Shown: piece by piece, positions 2,068 through 24,210 of the stretch
Numbering within the stretch: position 1 is the first letter of the stretch
How the letters are laid out: every line of letters begins with the position of its first letter
Assembly: GCA_964349145.1 (NCBI GenBank)
Contig: CAYGFN010000001.1
Span: forward strand, 8,683 to 36,742
Direction: 5' to 3'
From: an uncultured Candidatus Saccharibacteria bacterium
Lineage (GTDB): Bacteria; Patescibacteriota; Minisyncoccia; Phycocordibacterales; UBA2100
Length of the DNA: 28,060 nucleotides
Notes under the pieces: model-generated
Database searches by the model: none
Told to the model about the DNA's origin: nothing
Seen by the model: the letters and a program-made list of their open reading frames with translations, nothing else
Translations under genes and position numbers: made by a program

Positions 2068-3327
2068 ATGTCCGAGCGAAAGAAAATATCCACCGAGAGC
2101 TACAAAGGGGTGCGTGACTTCTACCCTGAGGATCAGTTCGTGCAGCGATACATGTTTGAGCATATGGAGCGCGTCTGCGAGCTGTATGGCTACGAGGAGT
2201 ACAATGCCTCCGTACTTGAGCCTGCCGAGCTTTACCGCGCCAAGTCCTCTGATGAAATCGTCAACGACCAGACGTACACCTTTACCGATCGTGGCGATCG
2301 CGAGGTGACACTCCGCCCCGAAATGACGCCGACCTTTGCACGCCTCGTCGCAGCAAAATCGCGAGAAATTCCGATGCCTGCGCGATGGTACTCCATACAA
2401 AATTTCTTTCGCTACGAACGCCCACAACGAGGACGCGTGCGTGAATTCTGGCAGCTCAATGCGGACATCGTCGGAGCATCCGGCGTCGAAGCAGATGCAG
2501 AGGTGATTTCCATGGCACACGCGATTATGCGCAGCCTCGGAGCAGAAGAGCGTGATTTCGAGATTCGGGTCTCGGACCGCCGCATACTGGACTCGCTCTT
2601 TGAAGAAGTGAGTGTCGCGGAGGGAGACCGCGCCGAGGTCATGCGCCTCCTCGACCGACGAGAGAAAATTGATAATTTCGCTTCGCAACTTGAAGAGCTG
2701 GTCGGCAGCGAGAAATCCGGTGCACTCGTGAACAAAATTGATACCATCACATCGTCTGCATACCTTGAGGAACTTCGGATAATGCTCGAGCAGCTCGGCG
2801 TCCGGAATATGATTGTAGATACAAAAATTACGCGCGGATTTGACTACTACACGGGTATGGTATTCGAAGTATTTGATACCACGCCGGAAAATCGTCGCTC
2901 CATGTTTGGCGGGGGCCGCTACGATGACCTGCTGGGCCTTTTTGGTGGCGAGAAAATCCCCGCCGTCGGATTCGCCATGGGAGACGTCACGGCGCGAGAT
3001 TTTCTCGAGACACACAATTTGCTGCCCGAGTACGCTCCCGCTACCGAATTGATGCTCTGCATCGTTGACGAGGATGCGACGAGCCACGCCATGCGGCTCG
3101 CGCAAGACCTGCGCCGCGAAGACGTGACCGTGGCGGTGAATTTTTCCGGCAAGAAAATCGGCGATCAGATACGTCAGGCGGACAAGATGAAAGTCCCCTT
3201 CGTCATCGCAATCGGCGGCAAAGAGCGTGACAGCGGACGCTACACGATAAAAAATCTCTCCTCCGGGCAAGAAATGACCTTGCCGGCGGATCGCATTTCA
3301 GAGCACTTGTTTTCATCCCTCGGATAG
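2068..3327 (+). CDS. hisS: Histidine--tRNA ligase
   Basis: YKGVRDFYP, LRPEMTP, FRYERPQRGRVREFWQ, RGFDYYTG and GGGRYD motifs, plus a C-terminal anticodon-binding domain. Confidence 0.97.
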   Translation: MSERKKISTESYKGVRDFYPEDQFVQRYMFEHMERVCELYGYEEYNASVLEPAELYRAKSSDEIVNDQTYTFTDRGDREVTLRPEMTPTFARLVAAKSREIPMPARWYSIQNFFRYERPQRGRVREFWQLNADIVGASGVEADAEVISMAHAIMRSLGAEERDFEIRVSDRRILDSLFEEVSVAEGDRAEVMRLLDRREKIDNFASQLEELVGSEKSGALVNKIDTITSSAYLEELRIMLEQLGVRNMIVDTKITRGFDYYTGMVFEVFDTTPENRRSMFGGGRYDDLLGLFGGEKIPAVGFAMGDVTARDFLETHNLLPEYAPATELMLCIVDEDATSHAMRLAQDLRREDVTVAVNFSGKKIGDQIRQADKMKVPFVIAIGGKERDSGRYTIKNLSSGQEMTLPADRISEHLFSSLG

Positions 3328-3362
3328 GTTCTCCAAAAATGGTGCGTGATATACTCCCCTCG

Positions 3363-3932
3363 ATGCGCGTCGTGACATTTGATATTGAGACGGCCAACTG
3401 GCTCTCTGAAGGCTCCGGCATGTCGGATTTGAACATCGCAATCGCGTGTATCCACGACTCCGAGACCGATTCCTACTCGAGCTATCTCGAATCCGAGCTC
3501 CCGCAGCTCTGGCCCATCCTCGAGCGCACCGACATGCTCGTCGGCTACAATTCGAATCATTTCGACATCCCGCTCCTTAATAAATACTACCCCGGTGATC
3601 TCACCAAAATCAAAAGCCTCGACCTCCTCCTCGAGGTCAAAAACGTGCTGGGAAGGAGCCTGCGCCTTGATGCTATTGCCGAAGGCACGCTCGGCACCAA
3701 AAAGACTGGGAGCGGCGCACAGTCGCTCCAGTGGTGGCGCGCTGGCGAAATTGATAAAGTCCGGCAGTACTGCATCAAGGATGTGGAAATCACCAGGCGG
3801 ATTTTTGACTACGCGATGGAAAAAGGCGGCATCACATACAAAGAACTCGGCCGCTCACACGAGGTAAAGCTCGATACTTCGAACTGGCTCACCCCCGCAA
3901 ACAAGGGAATGACTTTTTCCCTCGGTTTCTAA
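3363..3932 (+). CDS. RNase H-like / DEDD exonuclease-fold protein (YprB/RNase_H_2-like)
   Basis: VTFDIET, LVGYNSNHFDIP, YCIKDVEIT motifs; TATACT 7 nt before ATG 3363. Confidence 0.8.
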   Translation: MRVVTFDIETANWLSEGSGMSDLNIAIACIHDSETDSYSSYLESELPQLWPILERTDMLVGYNSNHFDIPLLNKYYPGDLTKIKSLDLLLEVKNVLGRSLRLDAIAEGTLGTKKTGSGAQSLQWWRAGEIDKVRQYCIKDVEITRRIFDYAMEKGGITYKELGRSHEVKLDTSNWLTPANKGMTFSLGF

Positions 3933-5607: not shown

Positions 5608-7392
5608 CTAAGTTTCTCGGATTACTTTGAGAAAGACGTCATTTGGGATGTCGACTTTTCCACGCGCGAGCATCTTTTTCTTGCCGCGCTTCTGCTTGTC
5701 GAGCAATTTATTCTTGCGCGATACGTCTCCGCCATAGAGATAGCCTGTCACGTCCTTGCGCATGGCGGATTTTCTTCGCGACGCAATAATCTTGCCATCC
5801 GCTTTTGCTTGAATCTTGAGCTCAAAAAGCTGTCTCGGAAGTAGCTTCTCGAGCTTCTCCACCATCGCTTCCGCCTCGTGCGCGACTCGTCGCTTGGATA
5901 CAATGCGCGCAAATGCAGGTACCGGATCTTCTGCGACAAGCACGTCGAGCCGCATCACATCGGCGTCCTTCATACCGGTGAGCGTGTACGAGAGTGATGC
6001 AAAGCCGCTCGAAATACTCTTGAGTTTGTCAAAAAAGCCGCGCATGAGTTCACGCAGAGGCATTTCCGCGTGCACCGCGGTCTTGCCATCAGGTAATGAT
6101 TCACTCTCTCCCACCACTGCTTCATGGTCGTACAGTATCTGTGCGATACCTCCCAAATATGCAGGCGGCGACATCACTACCACATCGGCCCAGAGCTCTT
6201 CGATTCGTTTTGCTTGCCCCGAATCGGGAAATCGTGCAGGCGCGTAGACATCCTCAATCTCCCCGCTTGGGTGAGTGATTCGATAGACTGTCGTCGGCAT
6301 GGTCACAACAAGCTCGAGATTAAATTCGCGCTTGAGCCGCTCGATGACGATTTCCAAATGGAGCATACCGAGGAATCCGCATCGAAATCCCTTGCCCATA
6401 ATTCCCGATGATTCTTCTTCGTACGAAAGTGATGAGTCCGAAAGGCGCAGTCGATCGAGCGATTGCCGCAATAGCGGGAGATCGTCCTGAGATTCCGGGT
6501 ACACGCTTGCCCAGATGACCGGAGTGGGTTGCTGGTATCCCGGCAATTCCGGTGCCGCGTTGCGCACCGAGACGACCGTATCGCCTACCGAGGCAATGCC
6601 CGGGCGCTTTACGCCCGTCACGATGTAGCCAATTTCTCCCTGCGCAAGTTCTTCGGCGGGTGTCTCATCCGGCATCATGCGCCCCACCTCGACTGCAATG
6701 AAATCCGCATTCGCGGCCGCAAAACGGAGCGCATCCCCTTTTTTAATCGAGCCACCAAAGACGCGCGTATACACAATGACTCCTCGATGGTCCGAATACC
6801 CGAAATCGAAAATGAGCGCCTGCGTTGCGGCTCCCGACGACGTCGGGGGTGGTACGCGCCGGACCACTTCATCGAGCAGATGCTCGACACCCTGTCCCGT
6901 TTTCCCTGATACCGGCAATACATCGGCCTCATCGCATCCGAGAAGGAGGGCGAGCTCGCTCGTGATGTCTGCCACTCGAGAAGCGGGAACGTCAATTTTG
7001 GACACCGCTGGCACGATGACGAGCCCCAATTCTTTCGCGACCGAGAGGACCGAGAGTGTCTGTGCTTCGATACCCTGAGTCGAGTCTACGAGCAAGACGA
7101 CGCCCTCGACCGCCTTGAGGGCGCGCGAGACTTCGTACGAGAAATCTACGTGCCCCGGCGTATCGATGAGATTAATGATGTAATCCGCTCCTCCCACCTT
7201 CCAGCTCATGCGCACGGGCTGCATTTTGATGGTGATACCTCGCTCGCGCTCGAGATCCATGCGATCAAGGACCTGCTCCTGCATGTTTCGCTTCTCAATG
7301 GTGTGAGTCAGCTCGAGCATGCGGTCGGCAAGAGTACTTTTACCATGGTCGATATGAGCAATAATGCTGAAATTTCTGATATTGGAAGACAT
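5608..7392 (-). CDS. lepA: Elongation factor 4 (LepA)
   Basis: MSSNIRNFSIIAHIDHGKSTLADR, ERERGITIK, LIDTPGHVDF, GFRCGFLGMLH, KLLDKQKRGKKKM. True start is 7392, not 7452. Confidence 0.97.
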   Translation of the reverse strand: MSSNIRNFSIIAHIDHGKSTLADRMLELTHTIEKRNMQEQVLDRMDLERERGITIKMQPVRMSWKVGGADYIINLIDTPGHVDFSYEVSRALKAVEGVVLLVDSTQGIEAQTLSVLSVAKELGLVIVPAVSKIDVPASRVADITSELALLLGCDEADVLPVSGKTGQGVEHLLDEVVRRVPPPTSSGAATQALIFDFGYSDHRGVIVYTRVFGGSIKKGDALRFAAANADFIAVEVGRMMPDETPAEELAQGEIGYIVTGVKRPGIASVGDTVVSVRNAAPELPGYQQPTPVIWASVYPESQDDLPLLRQSLDRLRLSDSSLSYEEESSGIMGKGFRCGFLGMLHLEIVIERLKREFNLELVVTMPTTVYRITHPSGEIEDVYAPARFPDSGQAKRIEELWADVVVMSPPAYLGGIAQILYDHEAVVGESESLPDGKTAVHAEMPLRELMRGFFDKLKSISSGFASLSYTLTGMKDADVMRLDVLVAEDPVPAFARIVSKRRVAHEAEAMVEKLEKLLPRQLFELKIQAKADGKIIASRRKSAMRKDVTGYLYGGDVSRKNKLLDKQKRGKKKMLARGKVDIPNDVFLKVIRET

Positions 7393-7393
7393 A

Positions 7394-7522
7394 TCATTTA
7401 CCCGCCTGCCCCGTTGGAAGCGTAGCTTTCCAACCGGGGTGATCAACCCCATTAGAGACGCGAAGCGCTCTAATGGGGCACGTGTGAGCGATTATGGAAA
7501 AGTTTCTGATGTTCTGAGACAT
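7394..7522 (-). pseudogene. 42-codon upstream ORF: duplicated lepA N-terminus with two in-frame 36-nt palindromic inserts
   Basis: MSQNIRNFSIIAH[TCPIRALRVSNG]VDH[PGWKATLPTGQA]GK*; TATAGT 8 nt before the ATG; the TGA ends 1 nt before the lepA ATG. Confidence 0.85.
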
Positions 7523-7532
7523 GGAGAGACAC

Positions 7533-7600
7533 TATACCCCGTGAGATAAAAGAACTCTAATTACCTGAACTGCGCGGGACGATGTATCTCATGGGGTATA
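7533..7600 (+). repeat. Inverted-repeat element, family A copy 2 (36-nt interior)
   Basis: TATACCCCGTGAGATA (7533-7548) ... TATCTCATGGGGTATA (7585-7600). Confidence 0.9.
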
Positions 7601-7613
7601 CCCCACTCATCGC

Positions 7614-9323
7614 CTACGCGCTCGTCGTCGTGCCGGGACCTTCTGCAGACGTCACAATCGTGACTTCTGGCAATGTCTTTGCACTCCAGATGCGCGCATG
7701 GAGAGACGCATACGTCTCGTTGAATTCACGACTTCCCAGTAAACGATAGGTGAATCCTGCGACCAATATGCCGCATACCCCGGCTGCAAATCCCTGCACA
7801 AAAATCGAAAGTGCGGTCGATGAGACGACAAACGAGCTTGCAAGTCCCAAAAAGATGTACGCGGCGAGGCCTGCGGCGCATGCTGCAAGCACACTGTCGA
7901 GCAGCGCCGACGCTATCTGGCGAAGCAAGCCCCTGAAGTGCCATTCGAAATGCAGGACAAGCACCACCGCACCCACGATAATTGCAATCGCATACGCACA
8001 CGCGAGGATAAGCACGTTGCTTCCCGAAATATCATCCACGCGCAAGAGCCGCTCTACGAAGCCAAGTATTCGCTGGTCAGTCGTTACGAACAACCCTACC
8101 GCTGCTACCCCGAGCGTGGTGAGAGCCACTCCTGCTGAAACCACGAGGGGTACAAGTGTTTTGCCCGCCGCATAGTATCCTCGCATCAGAAGGAGCGTAA
8201 GACCTTGTGCGGCGAGCGCGCTTGCAATCAGTGCAAACGCCGCAGCGGTAAGGCGAGTGTCGTTCCAACTGAATGCACCCGTCCCGAGAATCACGCGGAC
8301 AATGTGCGCACGGAGGACGAGGATGAGTGCGCTCGCCGGAATAGACCAGAAAAATACATAGCGCGCGGCGATAGCGACATGACGGACGAATTCCTCTGTC
8401 TCTCCTCGAGAGAGCGCACGCGCAAGCGTCGGGAATGCCGCGACCGAGTATGATGCCCCAATAACCGCAAGCGGCACTGCGGCAAGATTGAAGGCAAACA
8501 TAAAGACCGCAATCGATCCTGTGGCAAGCAATCCCGCGAATACCGTAAGTCCGAGGAAGGTCAATTGATTCATGGAGAGCGCAAGTGCTCGCGGTACCGA
8601 TATTGCTGCCGTCGTGAGGAGTGCGCGCGGGTCACGCAGCGTTGGCATTCGGCGAAAAAATCCATCGCCAATGAGAGACGGCACCTGAATCGCCGCATGG
8701 AGGGTGGCACCAATCACGACGCCCCATCCGAGACCCGCTATCCCCCACAGCGGATACAAAACAAGGACGCCGAAAATGATGCCCGCATTGTAGAGAAGCG
8801 GCGAGATAGCATAGAGCGCATAGCGCTCTCGTACCTGTGTCACGCCGGCGAGAATGTTTGAGAGGCCGAGAAGAATCGGCTGCAGGAGAAGAATACGAGT
8901 GATGAGAGTGAGATGTTCGCCTTGTCCCGCCGCGATGAGGACAGGAAAGAGCCTCTCAAGAATATGCGGAGCAAGAAGCGCAGCGCCCGCAGACACACAA
9001 ACGGCAAACGCGGAGAATCCTACGACAATCGTGTCAATGTAATCTTTTTGCTCGTCTCGATTTCTCCTGGTCAGTTCCGGAATAAGAATGTACACGGACA
9101 CGAGAGCACCCGTGGCCACGAAGATAAGGTCAGGTATGCGAAACCCCGCATAATAGACATCCAAGAGTGTTGATGCCCCAAACGCGTCAGCAAACATTCT
9201 GTCGCGAACGAGTGCGAGGAGCGACGAGAGGAGTGCCGCAACCGCCAAAATGGAGGCGGCAGCGTGCAAACCCCGTACCTCCGACGAAAGATAGCGAAGT
9301 GCGTTTCGAGCAAAGAGCGCCAT
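7614..9323 (-). CDS. murJ: Lipid II flippase MurJ/MviN
   Basis: SSLLALVRDRMFADAFGAS, DVYYAGFRIPDLIF, PLAVIGASYSVAAFPTLA, LMRGYYA; about 14 TM segments. Confidence 0.9.
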   Translation of the reverse strand: MALFARNALRYLSSEVRGLHAAASILAVAALLSSLLALVRDRMFADAFGASTLLDVYYAGFRIPDLIFVATGALVSVYILIPELTRRNRDEQKDYIDTIVVGFSAFAVCVSAGAALLAPHILERLFPVLIAAGQGEHLTLITRILLLQPILLGLSNILAGVTQVRERYALYAISPLLYNAGIIFGVLVLYPLWGIAGLGWGVVIGATLHAAIQVPSLIGDGFFRRMPTLRDPRALLTTAAISVPRALALSMNQLTFLGLTVFAGLLATGSIAVFMFAFNLAAVPLAVIGASYSVAAFPTLARALSRGETEEFVRHVAIAARYVFFWSIPASALILVLRAHIVRVILGTGAFSWNDTRLTAAAFALIASALAAQGLTLLLMRGYYAAGKTLVPLVVSAGVALTTLGVAAVGLFVTTDQRILGFVERLLRVDDISGSNVLILACAYAIAIIVGAVVLVLHFEWHFRGLLRQIASALLDSVLAACAAGLAAYIFLGLASSFVVSSTALSIFVQGFAAGVCGILVAGFTYRLLGSREFNETYASLHARIWSAKTLPEVTIVTSAEGPGTTTSA

Positions 9324-9324
9324 A

Positions 9325-11643
9325 CTAGCGCGTCGGCTTCGCGGGCTCTTCTCGCATCTGTCCGTTGAGTTGCGCTTCGGTAAGCTCGCGCCCTGCGGTT
9401 ATGTCCGCAATAAGTTGCGCAGCCACTTTCTGCGACGGATCAATCTCCTGTAATCGCTTAAAGGATTCGAGTGCGTCCGCTTTATTCCCTGCCCGATAGC
9501 GACTCAGCCCAAGTAAAAACTCCGCGTTTGCAAACTGCGGCTGAATGACAAGCGCTTGCTGCAGTGCAGCCACCGCTTCTGGATAACGCTTCGCTGCGTA
9601 TGAGATGACACCGAGGTTGTACCACGCCTGCGCATCTTCACGAGCATATTGCACAGCGCCCGTCGCTGCTTGGAATGCGTTCTCATAATCGGCTTTTCCC
9701 GCATATATCTGCGAAGCCAGATAGTAGGCCACTGCAAAATTCGCTTTGAGCTCTACCGCACGAGTGAGGAGTGCGAGCGCTCTGTCCGGATTCTTCTGCA
9801 AGATCTCGAGCTGAGCAAGATTCACATACGGTACCGGAAACGTCGGGTTCTCTGCAAGCGCTCGCTCGAAGGCGGCGCGCGCGCTGTCATATGCCCCCTC
9901 CACATTTGATCCCGCAAGCTGCGCGTAGAGAGACGCAAGGACCAGCCAATTTTGATAATTACCGCCATCGATTTCGACTGCCGCAAGGCCGTGCTTAATG
10001 GTCTCCTCAAGGGTGACCTTCAGCTTTGCTTTTGTGGCTTCGTCGTCAGGATTCTTCGACGCATTGAGCTCTTGGAGTGAGAGCAGTCCGAGCTGCACAG
10101 CTGAGGTGTGTGCGCGATCGCTTCCCGCGTGCACGCGAAGTGCAAACTTCATGTGGTTCGACGCAGATTCGATGTTTTTTGACTCGTTGTACACGAATAT
10201 TCCCTTGTTTACGATTGCTTCGGCTGTACCAATCCGCACGAGTGCACCCGAAGCGAATATCAGCGCAATACCTGAGAGAACTGCCGTCGAGAAAAATACG
10301 TGATGTACTGCCCCGCCCTTTGCCATGCTAAACGTACGCATCCGCACAAACGCAGGGACTGACAGCGCGACGAGGAGCCCCGCGAGAAAGAACATCAGTA
10401 TCACGATGGTGGTACCGGGAGATGAAACGGCGTACAGGGCGAAGAGATACAGGGTCGCGACAGAGAGCGGAAGCGCGATGGAGATTGCGGCAGTCTCGGT
10501 AGACGAAAACCAGAGCCTCACGACGAGCGCGGTCATCGCGAGCATAAATGCAATCCACGCAAAAAGCCCGAGTAGCCCGACGGTGATGAATGATGTGGCA
10601 ATCGGCGCGGCACCGACGCTGAAATCGACGTTCCAGAAATCTGTTTGATTCACATCAAGAGATTTATGAAGCCCCCATTCTCGATTGAACGTGTTGGGGC
10701 CGGCACCCACGAGGAGCGCGAGGGGGCGAGCAAGCGATTGCTGGCCAATCGCAAACGTGCCCGCAAACGAAGGTCGCACATCAGTCTGCACGACGCGGAT
10801 TTGGGCCGGTAGTACATTTACAACAAACGAGCCGAATACGAGTATGAAGAGTGTGACCAGTGCGCCCGAGAGGAGTGTGACGTTGCCGTCCCACCACCGC
10901 TCTCGTGCGGCAACCTTGGCTCGATACATGTGCACCGCACTCAATACAAGCAGTGCGCACATGATTGCGAAAAGTACGTCGAAGAAACTCGCAAGCAGGA
11001 GAAAGGCTCCGGCGAGTATTGCGCACGTCCACGCTACATACCGCCACCACGAAGCCGTGACCGCGGTGCCCAGCATCGCAAGACTAAGAAATCCCGCGAG
11101 GCCGGCAAACATCGAGAATTCATGCCAATTTCCAAGCAGGTTGCCTGTCTGACCAGCAAGGAGTCCACCGATTGACAGTGACGGGAATACAAAATGTACG
11201 ATTTCGACGACTAAGAGGACCAATCCTCCGACCAGTAGCGCCCGCATGGCGCTCACGACTTTGCCGGGGTGCATAGAAAACACGCTCGCTGAGAGCGCGA
11301 ACAGTGCAAACCCAACACAGACAAAAGCGAGCGTATCAATCTCGGCACCTGTCCCGACGAGCGACACGCCTTCGAATCCTGTCAGCGCCGAGGAGATGGC
11401 GTATGCAAGGGGCACGAGAATGGCAGCAAAAAGAGAACTTGCCCACGGAATTTTCACTCCCCCTTCAGTAAAGCGCGCGACAAGCCACAGTACGCCGGCC
11501 ACAAGCAGAATCGAGGCGACGATTAAGATCTTGGCTCGTCCGAGAACGATCCACGGAATCGGCATCGCGATGAATGGTATGAGCCCCATGAGTACGACGA
11601 GAATGAGGCGCACAAATCCATCCAAGCGTTCACTCGTATGCAT
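9325..11643 (-). CDS. Multi-TM protein (O-antigen ligase-like) with C-terminal TPR repeats
   Basis: About 12-13 TM segments, LLVGAGPNTF loop, TPR signatures (AWYNLGVISY, AEFLLGLSRY); TATTAT 7 nt before ATG 11643. Confidence 0.75.
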   Translation of the reverse strand: MHTSERLDGFVRLILVVLMGLIPFIAMPIPWIVLGRAKILIVASILLVAGVLWLVARFTEGGVKIPWASSLFAAILVPLAYAISSALTGFEGVSLVGTGAEIDTLAFVCVGFALFALSASVFSMHPGKVVSAMRALLVGGLVLLVVEIVHFVFPSLSIGGLLAGQTGNLLGNWHEFSMFAGLAGFLSLAMLGTAVTASWWRYVAWTCAILAGAFLLLASFFDVLFAIMCALLVLSAVHMYRAKVAARERWWDGNVTLLSGALVTLFILVFGSFVVNVLPAQIRVVQTDVRPSFAGTFAIGQQSLARPLALLVGAGPNTFNREWGLHKSLDVNQTDFWNVDFSVGAAPIATSFITVGLLGLFAWIAFMLAMTALVVRLWFSSTETAAISIALPLSVATLYLFALYAVSSPGTTIVILMFFLAGLLVALSVPAFVRMRTFSMAKGGAVHHVFFSTAVLSGIALIFASGALVRIGTAEAIVNKGIFVYNESKNIESASNHMKFALRVHAGSDRAHTSAVQLGLLSLQELNASKNPDDEATKAKLKVTLEETIKHGLAAVEIDGGNYQNWLVLASLYAQLAGSNVEGAYDSARAAFERALAENPTFPVPYVNLAQLEILQKNPDRALALLTRAVELKANFAVAYYLASQIYAGKADYENAFQAATGAVQYAREDAQAWYNLGVISYAAKRYPEAVAALQQALVIQPQFANAEFLLGLSRYRAGNKADALESFKRLQEIDPSQKVAAQLIADITAGRELTEAQLNGQMREEPAKPTR

Positions 11644-23303: not shown

Positions 23304-23391
23304 TGGCGGAGGCGGAGAGATTCGAACTCTCGGTGCCTTGCGACACTCGTCCTTTCCAGGGACGTGCACTAGACCACTATGCGACGCCTCC
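23304..23391 (-). tRNA. tRNA-Ser(GGA), CCA encoded
   Basis: 88-nt class II cloverleaf GGAGGCG/CGCCTCC, anticodon loop CT-GGA-AA, long variable arm GTGTC-GCAA-GGCAC. Confidence 0.93.
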
Positions 23392-23634
23392 TCCTGAACC
23401 AAACTCTCGTTTGATTTGCTCTCTCTTATAACCTTTCTTATACTCGCGCTCAACACGAACTGATTCAAGCTCGGAACTCACTTCGATACTCTTGAGCAAA
23501 TCGAATGGTCGACGAGACTTCGTAGACGGCACGGCGCCGCGATTGTGCTCAGAGATTCGCCTTTCCAAATCATTTGTACGACCTACGTACAAATTGCCAT
23601 CCTTTTGACTCCGCAGTATGTAAACGAAAAACAT
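23377..23634 (-). CDS. Small stand-alone GIY-YIG nuclease
   Basis: FVYILRS...LYVGRTNDLERRISEHNRG...STKSRRPF; the last codons overlap the first 15 nt of tRNA-Ser. Confidence 0.9.
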   Translation of the reverse strand: MFFVYILRSQKDGNLYVGRTNDLERRISEHNRGAVPSTKSRRPFDLLKSIEVSSELESVRVEREYKKGYKREQIKREFGSGGGVA

Positions 23635-23642
23635 ACAGCTTT

Positions 23643-23689
23643 ACTAGACCCCTGCCTGCCTGCAGGCAGGACTATGCGACGCCTCCTCC
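23643..23689 (-). mobile_element. Duplicated 5' fragment of tRNA-Ser interrupted by a 20-nt palindrome-containing insert
   Basis: Exact copy of 23368-23394 (27 nt) with CCTGCCTGCCTGCAGGCAGG (23651-23670) inserted. Confidence 0.85.
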
Positions 23690-23694
23690 CACGC

Positions 23695-24210
23695 CTACTG
23701 CGTGGTCCCGCCATCGGCGGTGACGTGCTCAGAATTTATAGCACGTGCACGGCGACGGCGCTCGCGCGCATCACGGAAGTGAGCGCGCTGTTCGATAAGG
23801 CGCGCGAGCATGCGCCTCTCGAGCTCTGCTGCTTTCTGAGAAGCAATCCATCCGAGTGTCGCGAGCACCACGTTGATGGCGAGGACTCCGAAGAACGCGA
23901 TATAAAATTGCATCGTCCACGCAGGGGGAATCCCGATCGCGTGCGTAAGTAGAAAACTCCCCATCCCGACGACAACATCCATAAAGCGATTCTGTGGCGT
24001 CTCATGGATTTTCACCATCGCCTCCCACATTTCGTATGCCACAAAGCAGAGGAAGGCGATTACGGCAGTCGGGATAAACGGAAACCCGAAAATTTGAAAA
24101 CCGATTGCAACCGAGACGCCGGAGAGGAAGTGCACGACGCTCCAGAGATCAAGCCACTTCCCTTCGCGCCAGATGTCTGTCCGCACAAATCCGTTACGCG
24201 GACTATCCAT
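23695..24210 (-). CDS. Hypothetical membrane protein
   Basis: About 4 TM segments; WSVVHFLSG and YEMWE motifs; starts 1 nt after the htpX stop. Confidence 0.75.
   Translation of the reverse strand: MDSPRNGFVRTDIWREGKWLDLWSVVHFLSGVSVAIGFQIFGFPFIPTAVIAFLCFVAYEMWEAMVKIHETPQNRFMDVVVGMGSFLLTHAIGIPPAWTMQFYIAFFGVLAINVVLATLGWIASQKAAELERRMLARLIEQRAHFRDARERRRRARAINSEHVTADGGTTQ

Follow-up and report, generated by a model that had tools for sequence, protein, structure and literature searches.

A displaced, hairpin-split lepA start and the replacement of gene ends in a genus of Candidatus Saccharibacteria

Integrative elements insert into the ends of tRNA genes and carry a replacement end with them, and the palindromic elements of Rickettsia, 100-150 nt in length, lie in frame within coding genes, where they are tolerated inside working proteins. 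SegB, from a tRNA cluster, is one of the free-standing homing endonucleases of the T-even phages. Among the free-standing homing endonuclease genes of these phages is also mobE (PMC2790892). In fungal mitochondria, mobile endonuclease open reading frames (mORFs) form 'gene hybrids' with atp6 of Allomyces and with atp6, atp9, cox2 and nad3 of Glomus (PMC3630166; a related model is given in PMC7315562), and the inserted and native ends of Glomus atp6 are 63.5% identical in nucleotides against 91% in amino acids (PMC3630166). The single-domain GIY-YIG nucleases called Ssn, which are accompanied by hairpin repeats (NTS/SRM), cut single-stranded DNA next to a hairpin and modulate transformation; a link between these repeats, the recombination of transforming DNA and a raised diversity of neighbouring genes has been proposed (PMC11893778). 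Here we describe the start of lepA in a stretch of 28,060 nucleotides from an uncultured Candidatus Saccharibacteria bacterium (assembly GCA_964349145.1, contig CAYGFN010000001.1, positions 8,683 to 36,742; hereafter the window), where a displaced copy of the gene's own 5' end, split by two small hairpins, stands directly before the intact gene.

We conclude that this lepA exemplifies a recurrent, element-linked kind of gene-end replacement. The reading that we consider probable is that the locus bears both the scar of a mobile-element event and its repair: the old start was left behind as a relic, hairpins entered it, a foreign patch arrived by recombination tied to those hairpins, and relic and gene came to be expressed together. 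Our search of the literature found no description of such a layout in bacteria.

The lepA start and its two alleles

The genome under study, G000, is a metagenome bin of 831 kb in 100 contigs, with 55% G+C, and coordinates of the lepA module are read on the minus strand of the window. Intact lepA (EF4; 5608-7392) encodes 594 amino acids with the Pfam domains GTP_EFTU, GTP_EFTU_D2, EFG_III, EFG_C and LepA_C, and its working N-terminus, beginning at 7392, reads MSSNIRNFSIIAHIDHGKST. Before it lies a relic ORF of 42 codons and a TGA (7394-7522), in which the old lepA codons 1-18 are interrupted by two hairpins, H1 and H2; the predicted peptide consists of MSQNIRNFSIIAH, 12 residues, VDH, 12 further residues and GK, and DNA coding for IRNFSIIA accordingly occurs twice in G000. 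The relic has the N-terminus of both the sister genome G005 and an uninterrupted allele described below, which its first segment, ancestral codons 1-13 (7484-7522), matches. H1 follows (7447-7482), a 36-nt insert whose arms, CCCCATTAGAG and CTCTAATGGGG, pair perfectly over 11 bp; it is absent from the uninterrupted allele. The next bases, TTGATCAC (7439-7446), are the remains of the ancestral I-D-H codons, identical to those of the uninterrupted allele, and read VDH in frame. H2 (7403-7438) is a second 36-nt insert, ending in the tag ACGGGGCAGGCG and with one bulge in its stem. At the coupling junction (7393-7402), GGTAAA, the relic of the G-K codons, is followed by the TGA stop (7396-7394), a single T and the ATG of lepA at 7392. 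The first 21 codons of the working gene (7330-7392, 63 nt) constitute a respelled patch, bounded by allele comparison at codon 21/22. Thus a duplicated gene end is present, with the displaced relic at 7522-7394 and the copy fused to the gene at 7392-7330, and almost all differences between the two copies fall at synonymous sites.

A -10 box, TATAGT (7531-7536), stands 8 nt before the relic ATG as a promoter of the leaderless type and forms part of the motif TATCTCAYGGGGTATA; the upstream neighbour murJ (7614-9323, Pfam MurJ), with its stop at 7614, fixes the ancestral position of this promoter. The leader region has a predicted folding energy of -52 kcal/mol (z = -3.3 against shuffles). The order of TATAGT box, relic ORF and TGA-T-ATG on the minus strand agrees with the duplicated, hairpin-split start given in the preliminary description, as do the 36-nt lengths of both inserts and the position of H2 at 7438-7403. 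The borders of H1 had to be moved by one base, from 7483-7448 to 7482-7447, according to the uninterrupted allele.

Both inserts being exactly 36 nt and in frame, with the VDH and GK of the relic also in frame, one might imagine that the upstream copy still makes LepA by bypassing or splicing of the inserts, and that both starts function. We give this idea almost no credence. The GK is followed by a stop and then by a complete new start with its 21 codons, the inserts of other carriers measure 39, 53, 70 or about 140 nt and lie in different frames, and the insert borders, read directly, have no matched take-off and landing codons of the kind that bypassing would use.

The module was compared with contigs of four sequencing runs from a single study (X1-X4), aligned to 7150-7800. 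X1 record 2 covers 7196-7800, X2 record 14 covers 7232-7800, X3 record 20 covers 7279-7517, and X4 record 31 covers 7409-7800 and ends inside H2; each has 0 differences. Independent contigs of X1, X2 and X3 therefore run from the relic ORF across both hairpins into the lepA start. Mixing of strains could generate silent-site divergence at a conserved gene start, and the genome is a bin of 100 metagenomic contigs, which is why a chimeric assembly of two strains had to be considered. Because the contigs of four runs agree without a difference, three across the module and the fourth in part, we do not regard the locus as a chimera, and the same architecture recurs in other assemblies, including genomes of 1 to 10 contigs. 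A chimera is hardly conceivable on this evidence.

Run X3 also contains a second allele. A contig of 109 nt, at a depth of 3.1 against 3.6 for the module form, matches 7517-7483 and 7329-7279, joined via 23 other bases that read, on the minus strand, ...CAC-A-TTGATCAC-GGC-AAA-TCG-ACG-TTG-GCC... and encode IDHGKSTL. It represents an undivided lepA with the N-terminus of the upstream copy. Its flanking pieces have at most one differing base each relative to the module allele, and the two alleles differ only within 7482-7330, where the module has 153 nt in place of 23 nt. Apart from one changed base, the relic pieces TTGATCAC and GGTAAA retain the ancestral sequence. Since the uninterrupted allele has the upstream N-terminus, we take the upstream copy to be the ancestral start and codons 1-21 (7392-7330) to be a replacement patch. 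The closest species, G005, has a LepA 92% identical to that of G000 and no insert; there murJ is followed by GGGTATAGT and by ATG TCT CAA AAC..., giving MSQNIRNFSIIAHIDHGK, with the same promoter type directly before the start. With the G005 start and the uninterrupted allele carrying the same N-terminus as the upstream copy, the earlier proposal that this copy is the original 5' end holds. The gene murJ also precedes lepA in G001 and G089 and, judged by a conserved C-terminal motif, in many other genomes of the genus. A metagenome scan for the uninterrupted allele gave no exact match, and a window-by-window comparison of G000 with G005, whose third positions are saturated (0.45), revealed no patch border.

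The patch and the ancestral allele share 34 of 51 bases over the 17 codons IRNF...STL, with every amino acid kept, and the patch shares a mean of 36/51 with the other lepA genes compared. It is about as far from its own ancestral allele as from random orthologues of the genus. The alleles bear out the earlier proposal that a separate, divergent 5' end has replaced the original one in the working gene: they differ only in 7482-7330, and codons 1-21 encode the same amino acids with the 34/51 shared bases. In contigs from other members of the community, 41/43 bases agree with the patch (X4 record 30), which suggests a foreign source for it.

These data bear on a different history, in which the first ~57 nt of lepA were duplicated in tandem in situ, the copies drifted apart synonymously, and hairpins later settled in the dead upstream copy, a rare neutral site in so compact a genome. 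The copies are indeed nearly identical in the genomes G126 and G061, variable residues 2-4 are often common to the left and right copies of one genome, and small palindromes are abundant in G000. However, in the two alleles of one population the flanks agree to within one base in each flanking piece, yet 17/51 patch bases differ without an amino-acid change, so that there was no time for gradual drift; moreover, the relic is almost unchanged from the ancestral allele, and H1 and H2 occupy identical positions in the unrelated G089. We therefore consider duplication and drift unlikely.

Recurrence and coupling across the genus

DNA encoding IRNFSIIA was sought in 116 genomes of the genus, with the reversed pattern as a control, and carrier frequencies are given per 106 genomes. 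The control had no match in the 116 genomes. Tandem N-terminal copies, two or three in number and 88-290 nt apart, were present in 11 genomes (three copies each in G020 and G126), and decayed relics were seen in seven further genomes. Comparison of lepA 5' regions across relatives, as the preliminary description had suggested, places relics at the P-loop-coding site in at least 18 of 106 genus genomes. In G105, G075 and G076 an older relic lies further upstream, which indicates that repeated events stack.

Two types of insert occur at this site. Type A, carried by G000, G089, G049, G105, G084 and copy 1 of G020, is a hairpin that comes after the AH codons and ends in ACGGGGCAGG, followed by the relic IDH codons and, within a few bases, by the next ATG. 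Type B, carried by G061, G062, G069, G083, G010, G126, G119, G120, G129 and copy 2 of G020, is an element of ~140 nt with covarying hairpins, placed after 'AHI' plus one G. The carriers are dispersed across the LepA tree, and every carrier checked has a close relative that is not a carrier (carrier first: G000/G005, G089/G001, G069/G116, G010/G011, G119/G113 and G126/G051). The sequences of G089 and its sister G001 agree at 90-100% over the last part of murJ and across the promoter as far as ATGGCC, after which G089 has ~130 extra nt; 12/17 codons within its working codons 1-20 then differ from G001, all synonymously, and from about codon 21 on the two genomes are again roughly 90% identical (alignment read by eye). 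The right border of the patch is the same as in G000. Presence/absence polymorphism with sharp borders is thus seen in the X3 alleles, in the comparison of G089 with G001, and over the tree.

G000 and G089 have lepA genes that are 72% identical, with third positions at 0.47, which is saturated, and an H1-VDH-H2 block that is ~95% identical, 35/36 bases of H2 being the same. Both hairpins are at identical positions in the two genomes. It follows that the hairpins either are mobile in their own right or are strongly conserved; the patch and relic, unlike the hairpins, turn over with the host sequence. Some other pairs of carriers show shared tracts. In codons 1-30, G062 and G069 have a third-position identity of 0.73, compared with 0.39 as the mean over the gene, and the excess of codons 1-30 over codons 91-430 was matched by 0 of 3003 control pairs. 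Between G120 and G129 it is 1.00 over 90 codons and 0.43-0.87 in later windows (0.71 gene-wide). Judged by these identities, both tracts look co-conversion-like.

As a separate observation, in-frame lepA inserts of about 28-32 codons occur near residue 65 in G001, G022, G027, G037 and G039, and that of G001 contains short tandem repeats.

All 12 relic ORFs, from 11 genomes, are open for 31-69 codons through the insert, in frames that differ among genomes, and all 12 stop between -11 and +12 nt from the next ATG, ten of them 1-6 nt before it. When the interiors of the relic ORFs were shuffled and the closeness of stop and start was scored again, an open ORF with a close stop was reproduced in about 2-8% of trials at most loci. 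Because every relic ORF is open and stops next to the next ATG, we argue for translational coupling, most plausibly leaderless translation of the relic ORF followed by termination and reinitiation at lepA. This comparison lends support to the earlier suggestion of the relic as a translated leader. A simple sigma-70 scan of 7300-7700 found no promoter besides TATAGT.

The same features could be those of a dedicated regulatory leader, in which the upstream ORF and hairpins form a selected attenuator or leader-peptide device for lepA translation. Such a device would account for an ORF that is always open and always ends beside the start codon, for hairpins far better conserved than neighbouring synonymous sites, and for the H2-like hairpins in the leaders of fusA and another gene. 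Nevertheless, ~88 of the 106 genus genomes do without it, among them the nearest relatives of all carriers checked; a single population has alleles with and without it; two unrelated insert types occur at the same site; and the peptide is the old LepA N-terminus. No Rfam family matched: a scan of the window at gathering thresholds and an E-value scan of six loci returned tRNAs only, apart from a spurious AsrC match on lepA coding sequence. The leader-peptide alternative raised in the preliminary description fits poorly with so patchy and polymorphic a distribution, and we consider it very unlikely.

The promoter motif itself is common. There are 62 sites of TATCTCAYGGGGTATA in the 831 kb of G000, and the -10 box that they supply lies 7-9 nt ahead of start codons, so that many mRNAs should be leaderless. 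After the murJ stop the motif forms an inverted pair (window 7533-7600), and it lies also at 1987-2054. The arms of the motif resemble those of H1.

Hairpins, nuclease genes and the type B element

G000 has seven small GIY-YIG genes. A GIY-YIG ORF of 94 amino acids on C18 starts at its host gene's own ATG-AAT, reads through the arm CCCGTTAGAGAT (P-V-R-D) and terminates within the arm ATCTCTAACGGG, where its TGA overlaps the restored ATG of the host. The arms of H1 match those around this ORF: H1 has them around a 10-nt loop, with no ORF, and is read in the same frame (P-I-R). This kinship makes H1 a gene-less miniature of a hairpin-framed GIY-YIG element. Only two H1-type copies exist in the genome, the second lying in frame inside tsaE. 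The same inverted repeat frames a single-domain GIY-YIG gene on C18 and stands without one in H1 and in tsaE. Other GIY-YIG ORFs, on C3 and C2, are nested in inverted repeats of their own, and that on C5 lies between family-A arms, like those of the motif TATCTCAYGGGGTATA.

The nuclease gene is present at two tRNA loci. At the tRNA-Ser locus of the window (23304-23697, minus strand), a 5' relic split in the D-loop by the 20-nt palindrome CCTGCCTGCAGGCAGGCAGG is followed by a GIY-YIG ORF of 85 amino acids (23634-23377; PF01541, E = 1e-15), which runs with its last codons into the intact tRNA-Ser. On C78, tRNA-Gln is built in the same way, nuclease gene included.

H2 has relatives of its own. 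Both fusA (C98) and a gene on C4 have a leaderless start ahead of the real one, and in each a hairpin of the H2 type, with compensating stem changes, separates the two. At fusA (C98 120-230, plus strand) a relic ATG-GCA is followed by an H2-like hairpin and then by a short ORF whose stop lies 8 nt ahead of the real ATG-GCT, and this start follows the lepA logic with two relic codons only. H2 is accordingly a member of a second family of hairpins at gene starts.

H1-like hairpins were found in at least 119 stretches of species-representative genomes, against ~4 expected by our own estimate, and span many bacterial phyla and some archaea; their hosts include Saccharibacteria, Omnitrophota, Planctomycetota, Nitrospirota and Desulfobacteria. 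The consensus is CCCCRTTAGAG...CTCTAAYGGGG, over 28-58 nt (L125-L204). Most of these hairpins are flanked on both sides by 4-nt direct repeats (TTTA, TTGA, TAAA, TCAA); H1 at lepA has no such flanking repeat. The H1-like loci L125-L204 yielded no GIY-YIG homologue resembling the local ones.

Two further observations were made. An ORF that ends ~10 nt before the lepA ATG at L069 (G070) has a C-terminal end that looks, by eye, like a LAGLIDADG-type endonuclease. A perfect 20-nt palindrome, CCTGCCTGCCGGCAGGCAGG, occurs in at least 25 places in G000 (for example at C79 ~2178, C14 ~2441 and C9 ~1791), and many copies lie in frame in coding sequence, such as the apparent atpD and gyrB, where they encode LPAGRQ.

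Type B is a dispersed repeat, consisting of two hairpins with GGGAAA/TTTCCC stems and then CCCCTTTC, and is present in 94/116 genus genomes. In G000 its copies lie on C48 (minus strand, ~1230-1500), C12 (~2950-3230), C22 (~9250-9460) and C69 (~3290-3444), and among the lepA loci it occurs at L057, L058, L061, L062, L013, L065 and L008. It is found between a relic and an intact gene end at lepA, at a glycosyltransferase whose N-terminus is respelled at 9/10 codons, and at many tRNA 3' ends. In 8/11 copies the 9-15 nt right after the core are complementary to the last bases before the insertion point, so placed that the segment looks guide-like. No protein gene linked to type B was seen in the copies read. 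We also considered an IS200/IS605-like element or an omega- or bridge-RNA-like one and rejected both, as the copies read have no conserved target tetranucleotide, adjacent-motif consensus or associated ORF.

Taken further, one could suppose a hitherto undescribed DNA-moving system in the genus. Hairpin elements, some with a GIY-YIG gene and some of type B with a 9-15-nt segment complementary to the target, would insert near the ends of conserved genes and tRNAs and overwrite the gene end with a respelled rescue copy, by 'cut and rescue' or by nucleic-acid-guided insertion during DNA uptake in these ultra-small bacteria. We offer this as a speculation that we consider rather unlikely.

Proposed mechanism and comparison with known systems

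At lepA, the original promoter, start codon and codons 1-18 have stayed where they were as a relic, split within the sequence coding for the GTP-binding P-loop by two small hairpin elements. Behind the hairpins, the 63-nt patch supplies a new start and codons 1-21, fused in frame to lepA. As to its origin, we infer that the patch derives from a different lepA lineage and was taken up through hairpin-tied recombination, for which we envisage two routes. One is nuclease-driven homing with co-conversion. The other, suggested by the biology of the Ssn nucleases, starts from transforming DNA that has been cut beside a hairpin and recombines on one side: homology on that side and illegitimate joining on the other would leave both a relic and a donor-derived gene end. 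Transcription would start from the old promoter, and ribosomes would translate the relic ORF from its 5' end, unwind both hairpins, stop at the TGA and restart one base later.

Several observations weigh against the replacement of the lepA start as we reconstruct it. The uninterrupted allele is known from one short contig of low depth, from the same study as the module. A donor of the patch was not found among 105 other lepA starts (genus genomes and four outgroups), the best match being 45/51. Residues 2-4, which vary among genomes, are often shared by the left and right copies of one genome (MS-, MA-, MSSH), and a foreign origin does not predict this. The genomes read have no nuclease ORF between the lepA copies, and tblastn with a GIY-YIG protein found no match upstream of lepA in 109 loci. 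Identity between G000 and G089 is not raised in the lepA codons that flank the shared hairpins (difference 0.08, not significant); since the hairpins are shared and the flanking codons are not alike, simple homing of one cassette does not explain this pair. Finally, an in-frame ATG at 7452, in the 3' arm of H1, could give a LepA of 614 amino acids, and the corresponding ATG is open and in frame with lepA in G089 too. We regard a start at 7452 as a weaker alternative to reinitiation. With this ATG open and in frame, gene callers may annotate a 614-aa LepA with a spurious extension of 20 residues.

If replacement through hairpin-tied recombination is correct, the kind of gene-end replacement that endonuclease ORFs bring about in the mitochondria of fungi also takes place on bacterial chromosomes, and at 5' ends the displaced start becomes an upstream ORF on which the gene then depends. 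It would account for short stretches of respelled codons with sharp limits within conserved genes, stretches that can mislead phylogeny and strain typing, as well as for a possible false start of lepA from gene callers at the G000 locus. It would also link the GIY-YIG nucleases recently described together with hairpins to an outcome that can be seen in genomes. The single P-loop-coding site, with 18/106 genomes, two insert types, stacked relics and a living polymorphism, offers a natural test bed for the question of how small selfish elements enter essential-gene sequence without the death of the host.

Among known systems, the palindromic elements of Rickettsia resemble the H1-like copy in tsaE and the 20-nt LPAGRQ palindrome, which are likewise short, in frame and translated, but they come without the replacement of a gene end. 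Integrative elements at tRNA genes share with our loci a target rebuilt from element-borne sequence, a displaced end that forms a direct repeat, and relics stacked by repeated events. In contrast to them, there is no integrase or kilobase-sized element here, the 5' ends of protein genes are included, and the repeats are respelled. The homing genes of T-even phages likewise place a nuclease gene beside a conserved target, with co-conversion of flanking markers and presence/absence polymorphism; however, the phage cases leave no duplicated, displaced gene end, and the local nucleases are known from sequence alone.

The likeness to Ssn, whose proteins form the cd10448 clade, lies in small single-domain GIY-YIG genes framed by hairpin repeats (20-50 nt in Ssn), with the same hairpins spread through the genome. 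The local proteins are placed by Pfam PF01541 (E = 1e-15 for the one in the window) and by weak NCBIfam matches. Ssn repeats are rarely inside genes, whereas here hairpins lie inside coding sequence and beside displaced gene ends, and gene-end replacement has not been described for Ssn. The comparison with the fungal mORFs has two sides as well. The lepA case concerns the 5' end of a bacterial chromosomal gene and not the 3' end of a mitochondrial one; its relic has retained both promoter and start codon and now stands as an upstream ORF coupled to the gene; its unit is ~150 nt as against 1 kb or more; and it has hairpins only, with no endonuclease ORF, such an ORF being present at tRNA-Ser and at tRNA-Gln (C78). 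As with the mORFs, however, a foreign gene end appears to have been fused in frame to a resident gene and the native end displaced as a relic, with differences that are mostly synonymous and a donor that is hard to name.

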